From Eledone cirrhosa (Eukaryota), in contig OZ024756.1 in assembly GCA_964016885.1 (NCBI GenBank), positions 33,542,001 to 33,606,000 on the forward strand: a DNA stretch of 64,000 nucleotides, in the 5' to 3' direction. The translations under genes were made by a program, and so were the position numbers. Every line of letters starts with the position of its first letter. Position 1 is the first letter of the stretch. The notes below the pieces were generated by a model. The model had not been told where the DNA came from. It was given only the letters and a program-made list of their open reading frames with translations, and ran no database searches. This document shows positions 16,645 through 51,132 of this stretch, piece after piece.

Positions 16645-16732
<88 letters not shown>

Positions 16733-17553
16733 GGAAAAAGTATGACCCCGACGGCAGAGCTCAAGCCGTTTCGACGGCTATTTCTAGTCTAGAAATAGCT
16801 GTCGAAACTACTACCCTAAGTATTGAGTACTCTGGTGCGTTATGGTCCATCTGGTTCCTTACCACAATTCCTTCGTTATATATATATATTCACCTTCGTT
16901 TCTTTCGATATTATGCATCATATTACACATATCTATATTTTATCACATGAAGTGTCAGAGTGTATTTTAGCGTTCCAACTGTCAATATTGACAGCATAAT
17001 TGGGCCAGGCAGCAAGCATGAAATGTAAAAGACCAAACATCTCATGAAAATCGAAGGATAAAGTGACAATTTTAATTCATTTCTATTCACTATACAGCTG
17101 TTATGAATACACATTGAAAAAGCCTATATTGTGAGTTAAGTTATTTCCCCTCCAGTCGCATTAAGCTAACACACACAAAGAAACACAAGGCAAAAATTGT
17201 ATAGTGAAAAGCTACGTAGATGTTTTATTTTATATTAGTGTTCTGTTGTGTTGTGTTGTCAACAGCTTGTTCTTTTTATTTCCAGCTCTAGGCAACATCT
17301 AACAAAGTTTAAATTTAATCTAAAATAGAAAAAGATGGTGCTGTTTGTGTAGATATTTCAATGGCAATGGAAGTTAAAGAAAATTCGAAGGCTGCCAATT
17401 TTATACAAGATATATATGTCAAGACAGGAATTCTTGCAAAGTATTTTTCTAAATTCAATGGGAGGCGTATAATTGGAAATTAGATAGGAAAAAACCTTAA
17501 TTTCATTAACACACACATGGATATATAAATATATATACATATATTTATATATA

Positions 17554-43892: not shown

Positions 43893-44276
43893 CTATAAAA
43901 TATGGTAAATCTTTCATTGATGTTTACGCTTTTGTCTAACTCGTAATTTAATTCACATAAACACATACACTAAAGAAATTACACGCACGCGCATATATGC
44001 ATGGACACACACACGCACTCACACACACACACGCGCGTTTATATGTATATGTATATATATGTATAGGAAAAGGGTCTGGACTTCGACGGTGGAGCTCCGA
44101 CCATTTCGACAGCTAGATCCGAACTGTGGTCAGATCTAGCTGTTAAAACGGCCGGAGCTCAGCCGTTGGGGGTCCCGACTCTTTTCCTATTACCCACTCT
44201 ACTACATTAAGTATCGAGTAGTCTGGTGGGTTATGTTCCACATGGTCCATTACCACACTTCCTTCGTTAAATATAT

Positions 44277-44367
<91 letters not shown>

Positions 44368-44792
44368 AGGGAGAGAGAATGAGTGAAAGATTATATATAT
44401 ATATATAGAGAGAGAGATAGATCGGAAAAAGTATGACCCCGACGGCAGAGCTCAAGCCGTTTCGACGGCAGAGCTCAAGCCTATTTCCCACTCTACTACC
44501 CTAAGTATCGAGTACTCTGGTGCGTTATGGTCCATATGGTTCCTTACCACAATTCCTTTGTTATATAGATAGATAGATTTCTTTATTTACCATAAAGGCA
44601 TAAAAAGAAGGGACAAATACAAAGGGGGAGTTTACATATAATCGAGTAAAAAGGGTGTAACATGAAAATAATCGAAAATAACCTCAAAAGGGAGGGGACG
44701 TGATGGGGGTTGCACACACCCCCGAAAAAGTGTGCAATCCTTTGCCCGGGGAGCACATGGAGAAGGTGTTCCCCTCTCCTTTACTTCTTTAC

Positions 44793-47700
44793 CTACAGGA
44801 TGGTATACAGAGAAGGCCCATTTACACGAGCCATTCTCGCCACTATCACCCACCTTTCATAAAACTGCCTGTGGCCAAGCACCTCTCTCTCCATTCTTAT
44901 CCTTCTTCCGAAGTGATATCGGAAGAAGTAGACCAGACTATGGCCAGAGAGGAAGTTGCCTGACCTCAGACCTTTCAATCGTGTCCACCAAACAACCTCT
45001 TTCAACATGGCTATTACGCACAGAAAAACCGCCTTTGCTTCCTTTGTGAAGAAGGGAGGCGGTTTGATTGTCATCACGGACTCGGCGGTCAATTTAATCG
45101 GCGCCACCCGCGACAGCAGTTGTTCGGCGTAGCCCCACAGATCAGCCACGCCCGGACATTGCACCAATGCGTGCGCCACGGTTTCTTCGTGACGCACGCA
45201 TCTAGGGCAAATCTTTTTTGAGGGATCCCTGCCCGGGCGCCCGTGTCTGTAGAGCCTCTCTCGAACGGGTAGAGCCCCTCGGTAGCACTGCCAGGCCAGT
45301 GACTTCTGGAAGTTGTCCATTGGTCCTGGGCCGAAAGTCCTACCGAACAGGCTGGCCAGTTCGTCTTCTTCCATGTCCAGCGACTCTCCAAGGGTGTCAT
45401 CGCCCCTGCTAGCCACCAGCCCTCTATAGAATGATGAGGTGGATTCTCCACCGATGGCCCGGCCCGCTTGCCAGAGAGCCCTGAGCGCCTGAGCACACTC
45501 AGTGTGCCAGTCTCCCAGTTTTCCGGATCTTTGCTTGACCCAGGACTGTAGCTCGGTGAGTGAGACGAGTCTCGGAAAGGCTCGTTTCACGAACGGAGCC
45601 CACACCGGTTGACCAGTGAGGAATACCTGTAGGTGCCGTAGCCTTAATGCGTGCCTACGCATCATCAACCACGGCATCCCCAGCCCTCCTTTCGAAGGTT
45701 GTTGGCAGCAGATGGATCTTCTCACCATAGGAGGACGCTTCTTCCAAAGAAATTGGAAGAGCATGCGTTCCATGGTGGTGAGTGTTTCCTTAGGGCAAGG
45801 CACGACAGTCAGGCGGTAGTAAGTGACGGACGCTATGTAAATGTTCGCCACCTCCGCCCGGCCTTTTAGGGACAGCTTACACTTGGCCCATTTCTGGGTT
45901 AGTGCAAACACCTTGTTCGTAACCTCGTTCCAGTTCTTTTCCACCTGGAGGTCCGGTCCAAACCAGACCCCAAGCAACTTTACCGGGCCCTCCGTCCAGT
46001 GTCCGACGACACCGTCAGGAGGCATCGGTTTGCCTCTCCACGTTCCGAGTTGCAGCCCGATGGATTTTTCCCGGTTCAGTTTCGCTCCTGACAACCTTTC
46101 GTACTCCTCCAGTAAGGTACCGATCGCCTCGATCTCCGAGTCGGTTGATACCATTACTGTTACGTCATCGGCGTAGGCCGACACCGCTTTGCTCAATCCT
46201 GGTTCCAGGGGGATACCCTGCAACAACTCCAACTTCCTCAGTAAAGGCTCGAGAGTCAATACGTACAGAAGGGAGGAGAGAGGGCACCCCTGTCGAATGG
46301 ATCGTGTGATTTCGAACGGCTTCGAAAGGTAGCCGTTCACCTTGATCCTAGAACAGATGTGGTTGCTATGTAGGGCAGTGATCCAGCCTCTGAAAACAGG
46401 ACCGAACCCAGCCGCCGCTAGCACCGCATCCAGGTAACCATGGTCGACCCTATCGAAGGCCTTAGACTGATCCAAGTTGATCAGGGCCCCACCGAAGCCG
46501 GGTTTGTTGCCAACCCTCTCTATGATGTATCGCATGAGGTGGAGGTTATCGTGAATGGACCTGGATGGGATAGCACATGTCTGCGCATCTCCCACCAGGC
46601 CACCCACGACAAGCGCCAACCTCTTTGCTAACACCTTGGCCAAAATCTTTAACTCTGTGTTTAGCAGGGTTATGGGCCGAAAATTATTTATACTATCCCC
46701 CTTGTTCTCGTCCTTCCTCACCAGCGTGACTACGCCCTTGGCTACAGAACAAGGAATTCTCCCGTTCTGCTGCCAATTGCAGTAGACCGCTTCGAGGAGT
46801 TCGGAGAAGAAGACCGGCATTGCTAAATAAAGTTCGTAAGGTATACCATCGAGACCTGGAGATTTGCGTCTGCTGCATTGGCTCAGCGCATCTCCGATCT
46901 CATCAGCCGAGATTGGTCCCTCGCAGGACTCTGCCTCTTTGTTCGAGAGACGCGGCAGACCGTCGAGGTATGGACCGAAATCCACGCCCCGGCCCGGACC
47001 CTCGCCTCCCCCGAACAATCGGGCAAAGTGCTTTTGAAAGGCCTCGCACATCTGCTTAGGCTCCCGGATCACTCGTCCATCTTCGTCTTGCAACGACCGG
47101 ATGGTGGATCGATTTCCACTTTTAGCTTCTGTCACGCGGGCCCATCCAACGGCTTTGGCCCCCTCATTACCTAGAGCACGTATTTTACTTCGAATGACGC
47201 AGCCTTCATGCTTTGCATCGAAAAACTGGTTCAAGGCCGTCCTCGATGCCAGCACTCTGGCCACATCTTCGCTCTTGATTGCCTCTTCTAATTTACCTGT
47301 TAATTCTTTCTCGTTTCTATTCCTATTGGCAGCTAACATCTTGCTATAACTTATTGATTCTGTTCTAATCTCTCTTTTGAGAGATGCCCACCATCGGTTG
47401 TTGACGATTGCACCCGTCAACCTCTCCTTAACTAATCTGCTAATCCGGTTTCTGTAAGTCTCTTTTGCCGGTAAAGACAAATTAAGTTTCCAGTAACCGG
47501 GACCCTGTCTATGTGTTTTCTCGAGATTGACCACGCAGGTCACTAATTTGTGATCCGTGTAGCCAACCGTGCGCATTTCTGGACAGCTTAATATGTCCCT
47601 ATCCTTACTTCTAACTAAGAATCTATCTAAGTACGATCTAGATTGACCACTGTGGTTTCTCCAAGTCCAGGTAGGCACAGTTGGAAAATCTAGTCGATAT

Positions 47701-48230
47701 CTATCGACCAAGTTAAAACGGTCGAGTAACCCCTTGAGGCTGTTACACCCCCCTCTATTAGGACATGCTCCTGCATAGTCCCAACGTGCATCTAGGATGT
47801 CATTCCAATCCCCCGCTAGAAGCAGGGAACGCGACGTTCCCAGAAAAGTCTCCAAACGCTGGAAGAAGTCGGGCCGTTCAGCTCCGAAAGGGGAGTAGAC
47901 GGCGACCAGTCTCAAGGCCGCACTTTCACTACTGCCAACGTCTAGCACCAACAAACGACCCTCCGGGTCCGAGTGCACAACCTGTACGGCAAGACCCAGG
48001 TGTTTTTGCAGCAGCACGACAACCCCACCCCCACCTCCAGGTTGACAGAGAGATGCATGCACCTCAAAGTCATCGAAGGTGGGGGCCAGCTGCCGCATGA
48101 CGCTGATTCGAGTCTCACAGATAACCATTACATTTATACTACATGACCTGAGGTCATTTAGAAGCTTTGCTTGCTTCCAAGTTGAGCCCAGGCCACGTGC
48201 ATTCAAACATCCTACTCTTAACACATCCAT
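44793..48230 (-). CDS. Tx1-like ORF2, 1145 aa AP-endonuclease + reverse transcriptase + C-terminal zinc-binding domain
   Basis: APE motifs (CLNARG, ICET, AGDWN, SYLDRFL, TDH), RT motifs (KSPGLDG, FRPITLLN, LDQSKAFDRV, RQGCPLS, YADD, KLLGV) and C-terminal CPRC..ETVAHALVQC; no stops or frameshifts. Confidence 0.97.
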   Translation of the reverse strand: MDVLRVGCLNARGLGSTWKQAKLLNDLRSCSINVMVICETRISVMRQLAPTFDDFEVHASLCQPGGGGGVVVLLQKHLGLAVQVVHSDPEGRLLVLDVGSSESAALRLVAVYSPFGAERPDFFQRLETFLGTSRSLLLAGDWNDILDARWDYAGACPNRGGCNSLKGLLDRFNLVDRYRLDFPTVPTWTWRNHSGQSRSYLDRFLVRSKDRDILSCPEMRTVGYTDHKLVTCVVNLEKTHRQGPGYWKLNLSLPAKETYRNRISRLVKERLTGAIVNNRWWASLKREIRTESISYSKMLAANRNRNEKELTGKLEEAIKSEDVARVLASRTALNQFFDAKHEGCVIRSKIRALGNEGAKAVGWARVTEAKSGNRSTIRSLQDEDGRVIREPKQMCEAFQKHFARLFGGGEGPGRGVDFGPYLDGLPRLSNKEAESCEGPISADEIGDALSQCSRRKSPGLDGIPYELYLAMPVFFSELLEAVYCNWQQNGRIPCSVAKGVVTLVRKDENKGDSINNFRPITLLNTELKILAKVLAKRLALVVGGLVGDAQTCAIPSRSIHDNLHLMRYIIERVGNKPGFGGALINLDQSKAFDRVDHGYLDAVLAAAGFGPVFRGWITALHSNHICSRIKVNGYLSKPFEITRSIRQGCPLSSLLYVLTLEPLLRKLELLQGIPLEPGLSKAVSAYADDVTVMVSTDSEIEAIGTLLEEYERLSGAKLNREKSIGLQLGTWRGKPMPPDGVVGHWTEGPVKLLGVWFGPDLQVEKNWNEVTNKVFALTQKWAKCKLSLKGRAEVANIYIASVTYYRLTVVPCPKETLTTMERMLFQFLWKKRPPMVRRSICCQQPSKGGLGMPWLMMRRHALRLRHLQVFLTGQPVWAPFVKRAFPRLVSLTELQSWVKQRSGKLGDWHTECAQALRALWQAGRAIGGESTSSFYRGLVASRGDDTLGESLDMEEDELASLFGRTFGPGPMDNFQKSLAWQCYRGALPVRERLYRHGRPGRDPSKKICPRCVRHEETVAHALVQCPGVADLWGYAEQLLSRVAPIKLTAESVMTIKPPPFFTKEAKAVFLCVIAMLKEVVWWTRLKGLRSGNFLSGHSLVYFFRYHFGRRIRMEREVLGHRQFYERWVIVARMARVNGPSLYTIL

Positions 48231-48263
48231 GTGGGCGGCAGAGCCAAAGGAGAGTGTAGAGAC

Positions 48264-50144
48264 CTACCTTTCCGCTTTCCGGGGTTCGGGTTGCACGACT
48301 TCCATGGGGTCGGGGGTGTTGGGTGAAGGGGTGTCTTGTGGTGGTGTGGGGTCGTCGGTGTGTGGTGGGGTTGGGGTGTTTGGAGTTGTGTTGGGGAGGG
48401 GAAGGGGAGGGGGAAAGCTTTTTAGTAGGACGCGGTTTATGGGTTTGACAGAGGGTGGTCCTACGTCCTCCTTAAAATCCTTTTTTAGTTTTTGGTAGAG
48501 GTTCATTGGGATTTTTATTAGTTTTAAATGTGGGTGGTTTTCTGATGAAACAAAGTTTACACCTTCGGTTTGTACCGAAGGATTATTGTATATGAGTTCA
48601 TTTAATTTATTATTGTTTCTGTTGATGTAAGTATAGTGTAATGTCTTTTTTTCCGATGGTGTGAGTGTTTCGAAGAGGGGAGGGGCAGGTTTGGTTTTGT
48701 TTGTTGCTGGAGGGGTGTTTTCTGTTTTGTTAGATTGTGTTGCGATTTGGGTGGGGGTTGTTTGTCCTTGTGTGTTTTGCACATGTTTTCTTTTTTTCCT
48801 TTTAATCTGTCTGAAGGACTCCGTTTCTTCCTCCGAATTCGTTGGGTTATCTTCAGTGTTGGAGGGAAGAGGTATGTTTGCTGGTAATGTTTCCGTGTTG
48901 GTTTTCTTTGTGGGGGAGATGGATGTCACTATGTTAGACTGTGTTGTGTGTTGTGTCTGCGGTGGTTGTGTTGTTTTATTGAGTGAGAGGTTGGGTGGGC
49001 CTGTATTTTGTTTTGGGGTAATGTGTTGTGACTGTTTGTGTTGTGGTGGTGTTGTGGTGTTACTGAGGGACGGGTTGGGTGGGACTGAGTTTTGTTGTTT
49101 GTTTATCTGTTGTGGTGGTGGTGGTGGAGCTGGTGTTGGTAGCAGGGTTTTCTTTTTGTTGAGTTGGGGACAAGCGGCCTTCAGGTGCCCTCTGCCTGCA
49201 CAGATATGGCAGGACGGCCTTCTCCCCTCCACGCTAATGTTTATATACCCGTGGTCCTCTAATAGGATTCTGTCGGGTATTTGGGCGATGCGTTCAGGCT
49301 TCATTTGTACTACCAGCTCTATACCTGTTCCACTGAACGCATTGCCTGTGGTTTTCCCAATGGAAATCACGTTGTCATTCACTGGATCGATGAAGCCAGC
49401 TATGAGCCAGCAGTAGTCCACATCTGGCATCATTGCATCCAGCCATATGCGTTGAGTTTTTTTCCCCATATAAGATGGATAAAAGGTGAAATTTTTCGAA
49501 CGAATCGGTGACAAAGCACATTTTTTTGCCGCCGATTCGTTCTTCATGATAATTGCTAGGCTTCCATACAGTCTGTCTTTTCTTATGAAAGTTGTTTCAT
49601 TCAGTACTTCTGCGAGTACTGTTTTGATATCTGCTTGAGAAGGCTGTTCAGGTTTTTTTGTACTGTTGTTGATGGTCCGAAACTTGACCGTTCGGCTTTC
49701 AATGTCTTTCGTGAATTCTTGAGGCATTTTTACCAATAAAATACCATTCTCACCTTCACTTATGTATTGTTTTGCGTCCGTGATCCTTCGTACCACATCT
49801 GAAATGTTTTCCGCTATATAAGTCAAAGATTTCTTTGTTTTCTGTGCAAAAGAAATCTTGTCGTCTGCTTTGTTTTCTGATATTATGTTATTTTCAACTG
49901 TTATTTTTTTGTTTGTTGTGTCTTTGTTTGTGTTATTAGTATTGTCATGCAATTTTTCAAATTTTTTTTTTTCGTTGTTTTCGTCATTTAATTTTTTTTC
50001 CTCTGCAGATTCGTCCGTTTTTATTTTCATTTTTCCTTCCTTCTCTATGACGTTAGTTGGGAAGGAAGGGAGGACTAAAGCGTGCGAGCTTACAACTCTT
50101 ACCGCTGTCCCCCCACCACTATTTTCGTTCGCTGCGTTTAACAT
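48264..50144 (-). CDS. Tx1-like ORF1, 626 aa nucleic-acid-binding (gag-like) protein
   Basis: Uninterrupted ORF with CCHC zinc knuckle CHICAGRGHLKAAC, a Pro/Thr/Gln-rich C-terminal half and a basic KRKKRK patch; ends 33 nt upstream of the ORF2 ATG. Confidence 0.92.
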   Translation of the reverse strand: MLNAANENSGGGTAVRVVSSHALVLPSFPTNVIEKEGKMKIKTDESAEEKKLNDENNEKKKFEKLHDNTNNTNKDTTNKKITVENNIISENKADDKISFAQKTKKSLTYIAENISDVVRRITDAKQYISEGENGILLVKMPQEFTKDIESRTVKFRTINNSTKKPEQPSQADIKTVLAEVLNETTFIRKDRLYGSLAIIMKNESAAKKCALSPIRSKNFTFYPSYMGKKTQRIWLDAMMPDVDYCWLIAGFIDPVNDNVISIGKTTGNAFSGTGIELVVQMKPERIAQIPDRILLEDHGYINISVEGRRPSCHICAGRGHLKAACPQLNKKKTLLPTPAPPPPPQQINKQQNSVPPNPSLSNTTTPPQHKQSQHITPKQNTGPPNLSLNKTTQPPQTQHTTQSNIVTSISPTKKTNTETLPANIPLPSNTEDNPTNSEEETESFRQIKRKKRKHVQNTQGQTTPTQIATQSNKTENTPPATNKTKPAPPLFETLTPSEKKTLHYTYINRNNNKLNELIYNNPSVQTEGVNFVSSENHPHLKLIKIPMNLYQKLKKDFKEDVGPPSVKPINRVLLKSFPPPLPLPNTTPNTPTPPHTDDPTPPQDTPSPNTPDPMEVVQPEPRKAER

Positions 50145-50383
50145 TTCTGTTAGACGATTGAAATTTTTTACACAAAATTTTTTAAAACAGGTTTTTCACC
50201 TCTAGGAGGGGTAAAGATGAGCTGACCCACCGCCTGACAGTTCAGACGGAGGGTCAAGCTACACAATTGTATCAAAATTAAGTTTGAACTCACAAAATTT
50301 CCTCAATAAATTTGAACAAAACTTCTGTGCGAAGTGAATGACATCCACACTGTAGAACAGACGACAGCTAGATTTTTTGTTAT

Positions 50384-50422
<39 letters not shown>

Positions 50423-50424
50423 TA

Positions 50425-50738
50425 TTTCTTTTATTTGCCACTAGGGCATCAAAAGTGGGACAAGTACAAAGGGGGGAGTTTACACAAAAAGGCGTCCTCA
50501 ATAAGGAGGAGGCAATAACAAAATATAAAAATAAAATAAGATATAACAAAAAATAAAATTTTTAACAAAATCCTCAATAGAGAGGAGGCGCCTTGGGGGG
50601 TCGCACACACCCCCGAAAAAAGTGTGCAACCCTTCTCCTCAGGAGCACAGAGAAGGGGTGCTCCCTTGGTCTTTCATCTTCCTCACCTATAGTCTGATGT
50701 AGAGTGAAGGCCCATTCACACGGGCCATTCTCGCCACT
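50425..50738 (-). mobile_element. 5'-truncated copy of a related Tx1 subfamily (last ORF2 codons + 3' UTR)
   Basis: Aligns by eye to 44579-44845; encodes VARMARVNGPSLYIRL* versus VARMARVNGPSLYTIL*; flanked on both sides by (GATA)n. Confidence 0.9.
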
Positions 50739-50776
<38 letters not shown>

Positions 50777-50778
<2 letters not shown>

Positions 50779-50883
50779 TTTCTTTTTATTTGCCACCAGG
50801 GCATCAAAGAGTGGGACAAGTACAATGGGGGGAGTTTACATAACAAGGCGTCCTCAATAAGGAGGAGGCAATAACAAAATATA
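50777..50883 (-). mobile_element. Severely 5'-truncated Tx1 3' UTR copy
   Basis: Near-identical to 50425-50525 (ttatttgccac..gggcatcaaa..gtgggacaagtacaa..ggggagtttaca..aaggcgtcctcaataaggaggaggcaataacaaaatat); flanked by (GATA)n on both sides. Confidence 0.88.
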
Positions 50884-51132
50884 TAGATAGATAGATAGAT
50901 ACATTGATGCGTGTTTTTATCAGAGAATCTGGAACTGGTTGTTCAAAGTAGAATAAACCGTTCTTTGGTGGTAGTCATTATATATTGTAGAATTATATAT
51001 ACCATAATTACTGTTGATGGTCCTATTTTTTTCTCATCCAATGACGTTGAAATTGTATTGCCTATGTTGGTGTGGGCGTTATACTATTGAATTAGACGCT
51101 CCCCGAATAATACTATTGATATATACATACAT

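Follow-up and report, generated by a model that had tools for sequence, protein, structure and literature searches.

An intact L1-group retrotransposon with a strand-specific preference for (TCTA)n repeats in Eledone cirrhosa

Kibi and Koshi, reportedly described by Kojima and Fujiwara in 2004, are microsatellite-targeting counterparts of the long interspersed nuclear element (LINE) reported here, which we call family A and which lies intact in a 64,000-nt stretch of the Eledone cirrhosa genome (assembly GCA_964016885.1, contig OZ024756.1, positions 33,542,001 to 33,606,000; the window, numbered from its first letter). In the targeting passages of PMC4494074, Kibi and Koshi of teleosts have the targets (TC)n and (TTC)n, and crocodilian Tx1 families (TTCC)n/(TTTC)n; like family A, these are L1/Tx1 elements of the apurinic/apyrimidinic endonuclease (APE) type that prefer one microsatellite (see also the corresponding passage of PMC3812793), and family A differs in that its target, (TCTA)n, is not pure pyrimidine and in that its host is an invertebrate. 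Tx1L of Xenopus, the model for the mechanism proposed below, resembles family A in having two open reading frames (ORFs) and an APE domain, whereas it inserts into a DNA transposon and family A uses a microsatellite (according to parts of PMC1950540 and PMC4494074).

The microsatellite targets given in the relevant section of PMC3812793 are ACAY, AC, TC, TTC and TAA, those of Waldo (ACAY), Mino (AC) and Dong (TAA) among them, the last being the repeat class of our sister family E; the GATA passage there concerns mutation rates only, and how APE-type elements target microsatellites is called not well understood. For Octopus vulgaris, PMC13282606 reports 80 L1-Tx1 consensus families, of which 13 have been active recently, with 421 insertions; the word 'target' is absent from its main text and the one supplement examined contains no GATA or TCTA term. 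The portions of PMC4640811 and PMC8869645 consulted add no GATA target, and no GATA/TCTA-targeting LINE was found in the literature searched, Repbase, where an entry may exist, lying outside this coverage. Microsatellite targeting by Tx1 elements is already established; the GATA/TCTA target is apparently undescribed. Our principal reading, which we hold at a probability of roughly 0.8, is that family A is an intact, very young L1/Tx1-type LINE that inserts into (TCTA)n in one orientation with duplications of ~15–22 bp, probably through an APE that nicks the GATA strand.

The full-length copy and its classification

The window copy and its parts are as follows.
44576..50374, minus strand: full-length LINE of family A, 5,795 bp from 50374 down to ...AATAAAGA at 44580, then terminal AATC; without poly(A)
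48264..50195, minus strand: ORF1, 643 aa stop to stop, first ATG at 50144; CCHC knuckle and Pro/Thr-rich tail
44793..48263, minus strand: ORF2, 1156 aa stop to stop, first ATG at 48230; APE endonuclease, reverse transcriptase (RT), C-terminal zinc knuckle
44557..44578, no strand: target-site duplication, 3'-side copy; strict part 44557–44575, 19 bp
50376..50397, no strand: target-site duplication, 5'-side copy, inside the (GATA)n tract 50384–50422; one extra base at 50375

An initial annotation, made from the letters of the window, had described this copy as having two intact ORFs, a 22-bp target-site duplication and no poly(A) tail. Both ORFs are indeed intact, and each copy in the window ends without poly(A), an AATAAA standing a few bases ahead of a fixed end. 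The duplication needs a small correction: the 22-mer tttgttatatagatagatagat is present at both flanks (44557–44578 and 50376–50397), but 3 of its 22 bases could equally belong to the element end, which leaves a strict duplication of 19 bp, and an extra A at 50375 separates the copy from its 5'-side duplication.

ORF2 matches Exo_endo_phos and RVT_1 in Pfam, with zf-RVT just below threshold (26.9 bits vs a cut-off of 27.5), and its catalytic motifs are present on inspection. Among solved structures it comes closest to L1 ORF2p (E 1.6e-50 for residues 6–853, compared with 2.6e-20 for R2), the matches including no full ORF2 from other APE clades. Waldo, Mino and Dong belong to other clades, R1 and R4, whereas the ORF2 of family A is nearest to that of L1. 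ORF1, which has no Pfam match at E 0.1, carries a CCHC knuckle, CHICAGRGHLKAAC, at residue 329, and its Atlas look-alikes carry zf-CCHC (score 0.92; a lead only). A CCHC zinc knuckle in ORF1 is typical of Tx1, in contrast to mammalian L1. With its N-terminal APE, RT and C-terminal zinc knuckle, an ORF2 nearer L1 than R2, target-site duplications and frequent 5' truncation, family A is a LINE of the L1 group, and it likely belongs to the Tx1 clade proper. The single Tx1-named match to ORF2, P0008 (an automatic name), is 30% identical, and in an RT tree built without reference Tx1 sequences the family sits on a long branch with the unnamed P0001–P0003; P0002 and P0003, on long contigs, are 43–44% identical to ORF2 and form the nearest outgroup. 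The stop codon of ORF1 falls within a donor-like AAG/GTAGGT (48260–48275); precise removal of ORF2 was found in 0 of the deletions of 9 internally deleted copies, a small sample by which splicing of ORF2 is not refuted.

An exact 22-mer from the 3' end of family A occurs 1,547 times in the 3.0-Gb genome, 798 of these ends continuing directly into AATCTATC, and a 24-mer from the 5' end occurs 546 times. Among the best 40 matches to the 3' untranslated region, 33, including the window copy, are identical over 321 nt; 20 of these 33, chosen with a bias toward 3' flanks that leave the repeat early, make up the young set, with 13 full-length copies and 11 in which neither ORF is disrupted. Ten young copies and the window copy show a median pairwise difference of 2 in 5,795 nt. 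Four full-length copies, each on its own contig and each with its own flanks and duplication, do not differ at any of the 5,795 bp; the window copy departs from their common sequence by 4 substitutions, two of which alter a residue. An ORF2 of 1,150–1,156 aa is retained in 13 of the 80 unselected copies described below. Because the full-length copies are nearly identical, very recent activity of family A is well supported, and we infer that it is active today.

Insertion into (TCTA)n repeats

Target preference was assessed on an unselected sample, the first 80 of the 1,547 family A 3' ends along contig C1, taken regardless of their flanks. Two were dropped, L196 because its 5' end lay beyond the fetched stretch and L152 as a duplicate of L151, and the junctions of L135 and L138 were corrected by hand for later rearrangements. 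In 59 of the remaining 78 copies (76%), TCTATCTA lies within 30 nt of the 5' junction, whereas the background frequency is 0.19% across 20 stretches of 10 kb at arbitrary positions, and 0.12% for the remainder of the window. As defined in a passage of PMC4494074, an element is target-specific when one sequence type occupies more than 20% of its flanks, a value that family A far exceeds. The other 5' junctions comprise 7 with a single TCTAT(C/A), 8 in (TA)n and 4 in unrelated sequence; 19 of 78 copies therefore lack two full units there, and the minimal site is approximately CTATCT. The opposite repeat orientation was seen in none of the 80 copies, and the pattern AATAAA-N0-2-GAAA-NN-TATCTATC occurs 16,470 times genome-wide, against 2 occurrences of the reversed pattern. 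The (TC)n and (TTC)n targets of Kibi and Koshi are not those of family A: TCTCTCTC is present in 4 of 80 5' flanks, compared with 59 of 80 for TCTATCTA.

The initial annotation had proposed a GATA-specific lineage, a proposal that a predominance of non-GATA 5' junctions would have contradicted; the tabulated junctions run the other way, and what they establish is a strong, strand-specific preference rather than strict specificity. Its further suggestion, that the element might be usable as a site-specific integrase, is weak because the target is short, highly repeated and not exclusively used; with a core site of ~6 bp that is very frequent, the value as an integration tool is limited.

The preference extends to both full-length and 5'-truncated copies. 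Truncation affects 24 of 78 copies, and TCTATCTA is found at the 5' junction in 46 of 54 full-length and 13 of 24 truncated copies, 4 more truncated copies lying at single-unit sites. Duplications that contain non-repeat letters could be mapped in 34 of 78 copies (median 18.5 bp, range 8–22); the target base immediately before the duplication is C in 27 of these 34, and TAT directly follows the element end in all 34. As the duplications run into non-repeat DNA, the TCTA repeat is a pre-existing target and not a tail made by the element. Among the 20 youngest copies, the upstream flank holds TCTATCTA in 17, CTATCT in 19 and TATCT in all 20. Two of these (L385 and L387) used a lone CTATCT and show no added repeat units at their 3' junctions; family A therefore does not normally add a repeat tail.

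Further observations were made at individual sites. Copies of families A and B at L151/L152, L214 and L263 lie within short satellite units bearing a TCTAT- or TATAT-like word, and neighbouring units at such loci (e.g. L151) show the site without an insertion. L186 and L189 share an unrelated sequence beyond the element end, probably another mobile element inserted at the tail TA. The pure repeat run is longer before the 5' junction than after the 3' end (median 4 vs 2 units, p = 0.011), a difference confounded by slippage, from which nothing is drawn. With regard to insertion polymorphism, no empty-site joint was present among the joints listed for sequencing runs compared with the window, repeats being skipped in that listing. 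At L168:4166, an empty allele is no more than hinted at: contigs from a pair of runs of one sample agree perfectly with the 5' flank, cease to match at the junction and continue for 15–16 letters that do not align.

Selection of the insertion site

Subfamilies differ in the last four letters of the element. Younger copies of family A, with a median identity of 98.4%, end in AATC, older copies (96.2%) end in AATA, and the ends of sister families B and C read AACA, AACT or AATA. This variation allows the contribution of the RNA end to be weighed. AATA-ended copies of family A occupy TCTA-type sites 29 times and (TA)n 6 times, even though ATATAT is 39 times commoner than CTATCT (8,040 vs 204 in 200 kb), and the choice of site is therefore best explained by the endonuclease. 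By analogy, this agrees with Tx1L, whose endonuclease, according to the relevant part of PMC1950540, is sequence-specific in vitro and nicks its own target. From the combination of an AATA end with TC in the target, the join lies at or to the right of C|TATC, and it is bounded on the other side by family C copies that precede (TC)n and show only AACA(T). These junctions predict a nick in the purine-rich strand at GATA^G or GAT^AG, the position being uncertain by one base. Reverse transcription would then be primed at the nicked GATA strand, possibly assisted by the RNA end pairing with the primer over 1–3 nt, and the second strand would be cut ~15–22 nt downstream. TATC units are left flanking the element by its duplication, in keeping with the earlier claim that insertions preserve the target on both sides, and later copies of families A, B and C could thus land in the same tract.

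Several observations weigh against so simple an account. Use of (TA)n tends to follow the AATA end (6/37 copies, vs 1/40 with AATC; p = 0.051), and either the RNA end may contribute to site choice or the older tracts may have decayed. The 8 of 78 copies in (TA)n amount to ~10% against a background of 7%, which is no enrichment, 4 further 5' flanks are unrelated, and TATATA follows the element end in 8 of 30 family B copies. Part of the pattern may also come from selection favouring harmless sites. The duplication finder may also choose the wrong register in degenerate repeats, making the shortest duplication lengths doubtful.

One alternative assigns the choice to the RNA, the nick being only loosely specific and the 3' end (or read-through UCUA repeats) pairing with the GATA primer to pick the site, with the endonuclease secondary. 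The invariable TAT after the element end in mapped duplications, the AATC end of the youngest subfamily being in phase with the target, and the weak tracking of (TA)n use by AATA ends all suit it, as do the 5' flanks of family E, all of which stop in phase at ATT, as homology-guided joining could produce. Pairing does not account, however, for families ending in AATA, AACA or AACT that still pick TCTA over the far commoner (TA)n, nor for the single-unit sites, which gain no units; and as family C carries only AACA(T) before (TC)n, at most one base of the TAT need be element-made. We regard selection by the RNA end as unlikely, and endonuclease-driven choice as the better account.

Less probable still, and largely refuted, is the idea that TCTA is merely an element-made tail, its presence at 5' junctions arising from nesting, slippage or recombination, or from better survival in repeat-rich DNA. 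Such a history would fit the 25 of 78 copies that follow a relative's tail and the three same-family arrays that repeat an identical 5' junction, as duplication would. Yet 53 of 78 copies are not behind any detectable relative's tail, the truncated copies with TCTA at the 5' junction (13/24) and the duplications with non-repeat letters are at odds with it, the satellite units neighbouring L151 show the site uninterrupted, and passive survival would yield neither the complete lack of the opposite orientation (0/80) nor the avoidance of commoner (TA)n and (CA)n tracts. Artefacts of assembly or polishing might be suspected where four copies are identical over 5,795 bp and where some arrays repeat one junction, but the identical copies lie on four contigs with differing flanks and duplications, other copies carry private changes, and raw reads from two other runs join a truncated copy to GATA repeats at element position 45881; we give this explanation hardly any credence. 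Insertion into pre-existing (TCTA)n through an APE with a strand-specific preference is the reading we retain.

Sister families and nested copies

Three sister families were compared with family A, their exact 3' motifs occurring 1,929 (B), 5,820 (C) and 7,220 (E) times. The RT tree unites A, B and C (100/100) to the exclusion of E, and ORF2 identity is 83.5% between A and B and 66% between A and E. With TATCT after the element end in 22 of 30 B copies and 25 of 30 C copies, the GATA/TCTA preference is common to A, B and C. In family E, ATT repeats follow the end in 29 of 30 copies, and (ATT)n lies upstream in all 18 copies whose 5' end was located among 20 fetched for length, TCTA being found in none (background 0.3%). 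These E copies (L331–L350, C1), with (ATT)n on both sides, fall into two subfamilies whose ORF2 sequences are 96% alike and whose 5' ends and ORF1 regions differ. Alignment to a solved L1 endonuclease variant locates the minor-groove hairpin loop of the APE, whose sequence is N[H/R]SG in the three TCTA families and NRIG in E. This is a lead only; a passage of PMC1950540 argues that the shape and flexibility of this loop count more than its sequence.

Tentatively, these families may represent a radiation, within one genome, of still-active sister LINEs that divide (TCTA)n and (ATT)n niches by few changes in a 66%-identical ORF2, with the hairpin loop as a candidate and the TCTA clade seeding its own niche. 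Were this so, a considerable part of the longer GATA tracts might stem from the TCTA clade, whose junctions number at least 16,000, and the A/E pair would be a natural experiment on the switching of APE specificity. The added interest of the system lies in this intact TCTA/ATT sister pair: near-identical intact copies that seek TCTA, together with the intact ORF2 of a close sister that seeks ATT, make the site chooser directly testable. At the GATA tracts of this genome the families are moreover a major source of mutation, a point that bears on microsatellite markers and on assembly.

In the window, two truncated copies and their tracts adjoin the full-length element.
50423..50738, minus strand: B1, 5'-truncated copy of sister family B; 99.7% identical over 312 nt to the full-length B copy L257
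50739..50776, no strand: (GATA)n tract separating B1 and B2
50777..50883, minus strand: B2, 5'-truncated B variant; 95% identical over 100 nt to L257; likely the earliest insertion at the site
50880..50901, no strand: outer (TATC)4TATATA flank, likely the 5' copy of B2's target duplication; 4 nt shared with B2

The initial annotation had recognized three minus-strand copies in tandem with junctions in (GATA)n, and had assigned the truncated ones to a diverged subfamily sharing the preference; the sequence bears out both points. Because the truncated copies match family B and are only 77–82% identical to family A, the three are independent insertions. The outer flank at 50880–50901 matches the end of the repeat beside 44557, from which the likely order of insertion is B2, then B1, then A.

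Across the sample, 25 of 78 family A copies (32%) sit behind a tail that belongs to a relative or to a further A copy, and to that extent the nesting into relatives' tails that had been proposed for the window holds more widely. Such tails make up ~5% of TCTATCTA clusters (29 clusters in 257,550 bases, scaled to the genome) and ~24% of tracts with at least 3 units (6 clusters, grouped by eye), both from small background counts. Recognition of the tails as such is not needed; the simplest account is that the duplication leaves a target on both sides. Head-to-tail arrays of family A at C1:348.92–348.93 Mb, C1:271.07–271.09 Mb and C7:58.80–58.81 Mb repeat the same 5' junction letters, one of the three repeating a whole B fragment per unit, whereas junctions differ in other arrays. 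Some same-family stacks are probably tandem duplications through the flanking TCTA tracts, or assembly errors, rather than serial insertions.

The antisense of the APE motif YLDRF (47620–47640) contains the target TCTATCTA, and one young copy (L385) is inserted in the antisense YLDRF stretch of a relative, in the opposite orientation. A short dispersed repeat at 44421–44563 forms the outer flank of the GATA tract and usually adjoins (TA)n; similar copies lie at 16730–16878, 42835–42918 and 44186–44269.

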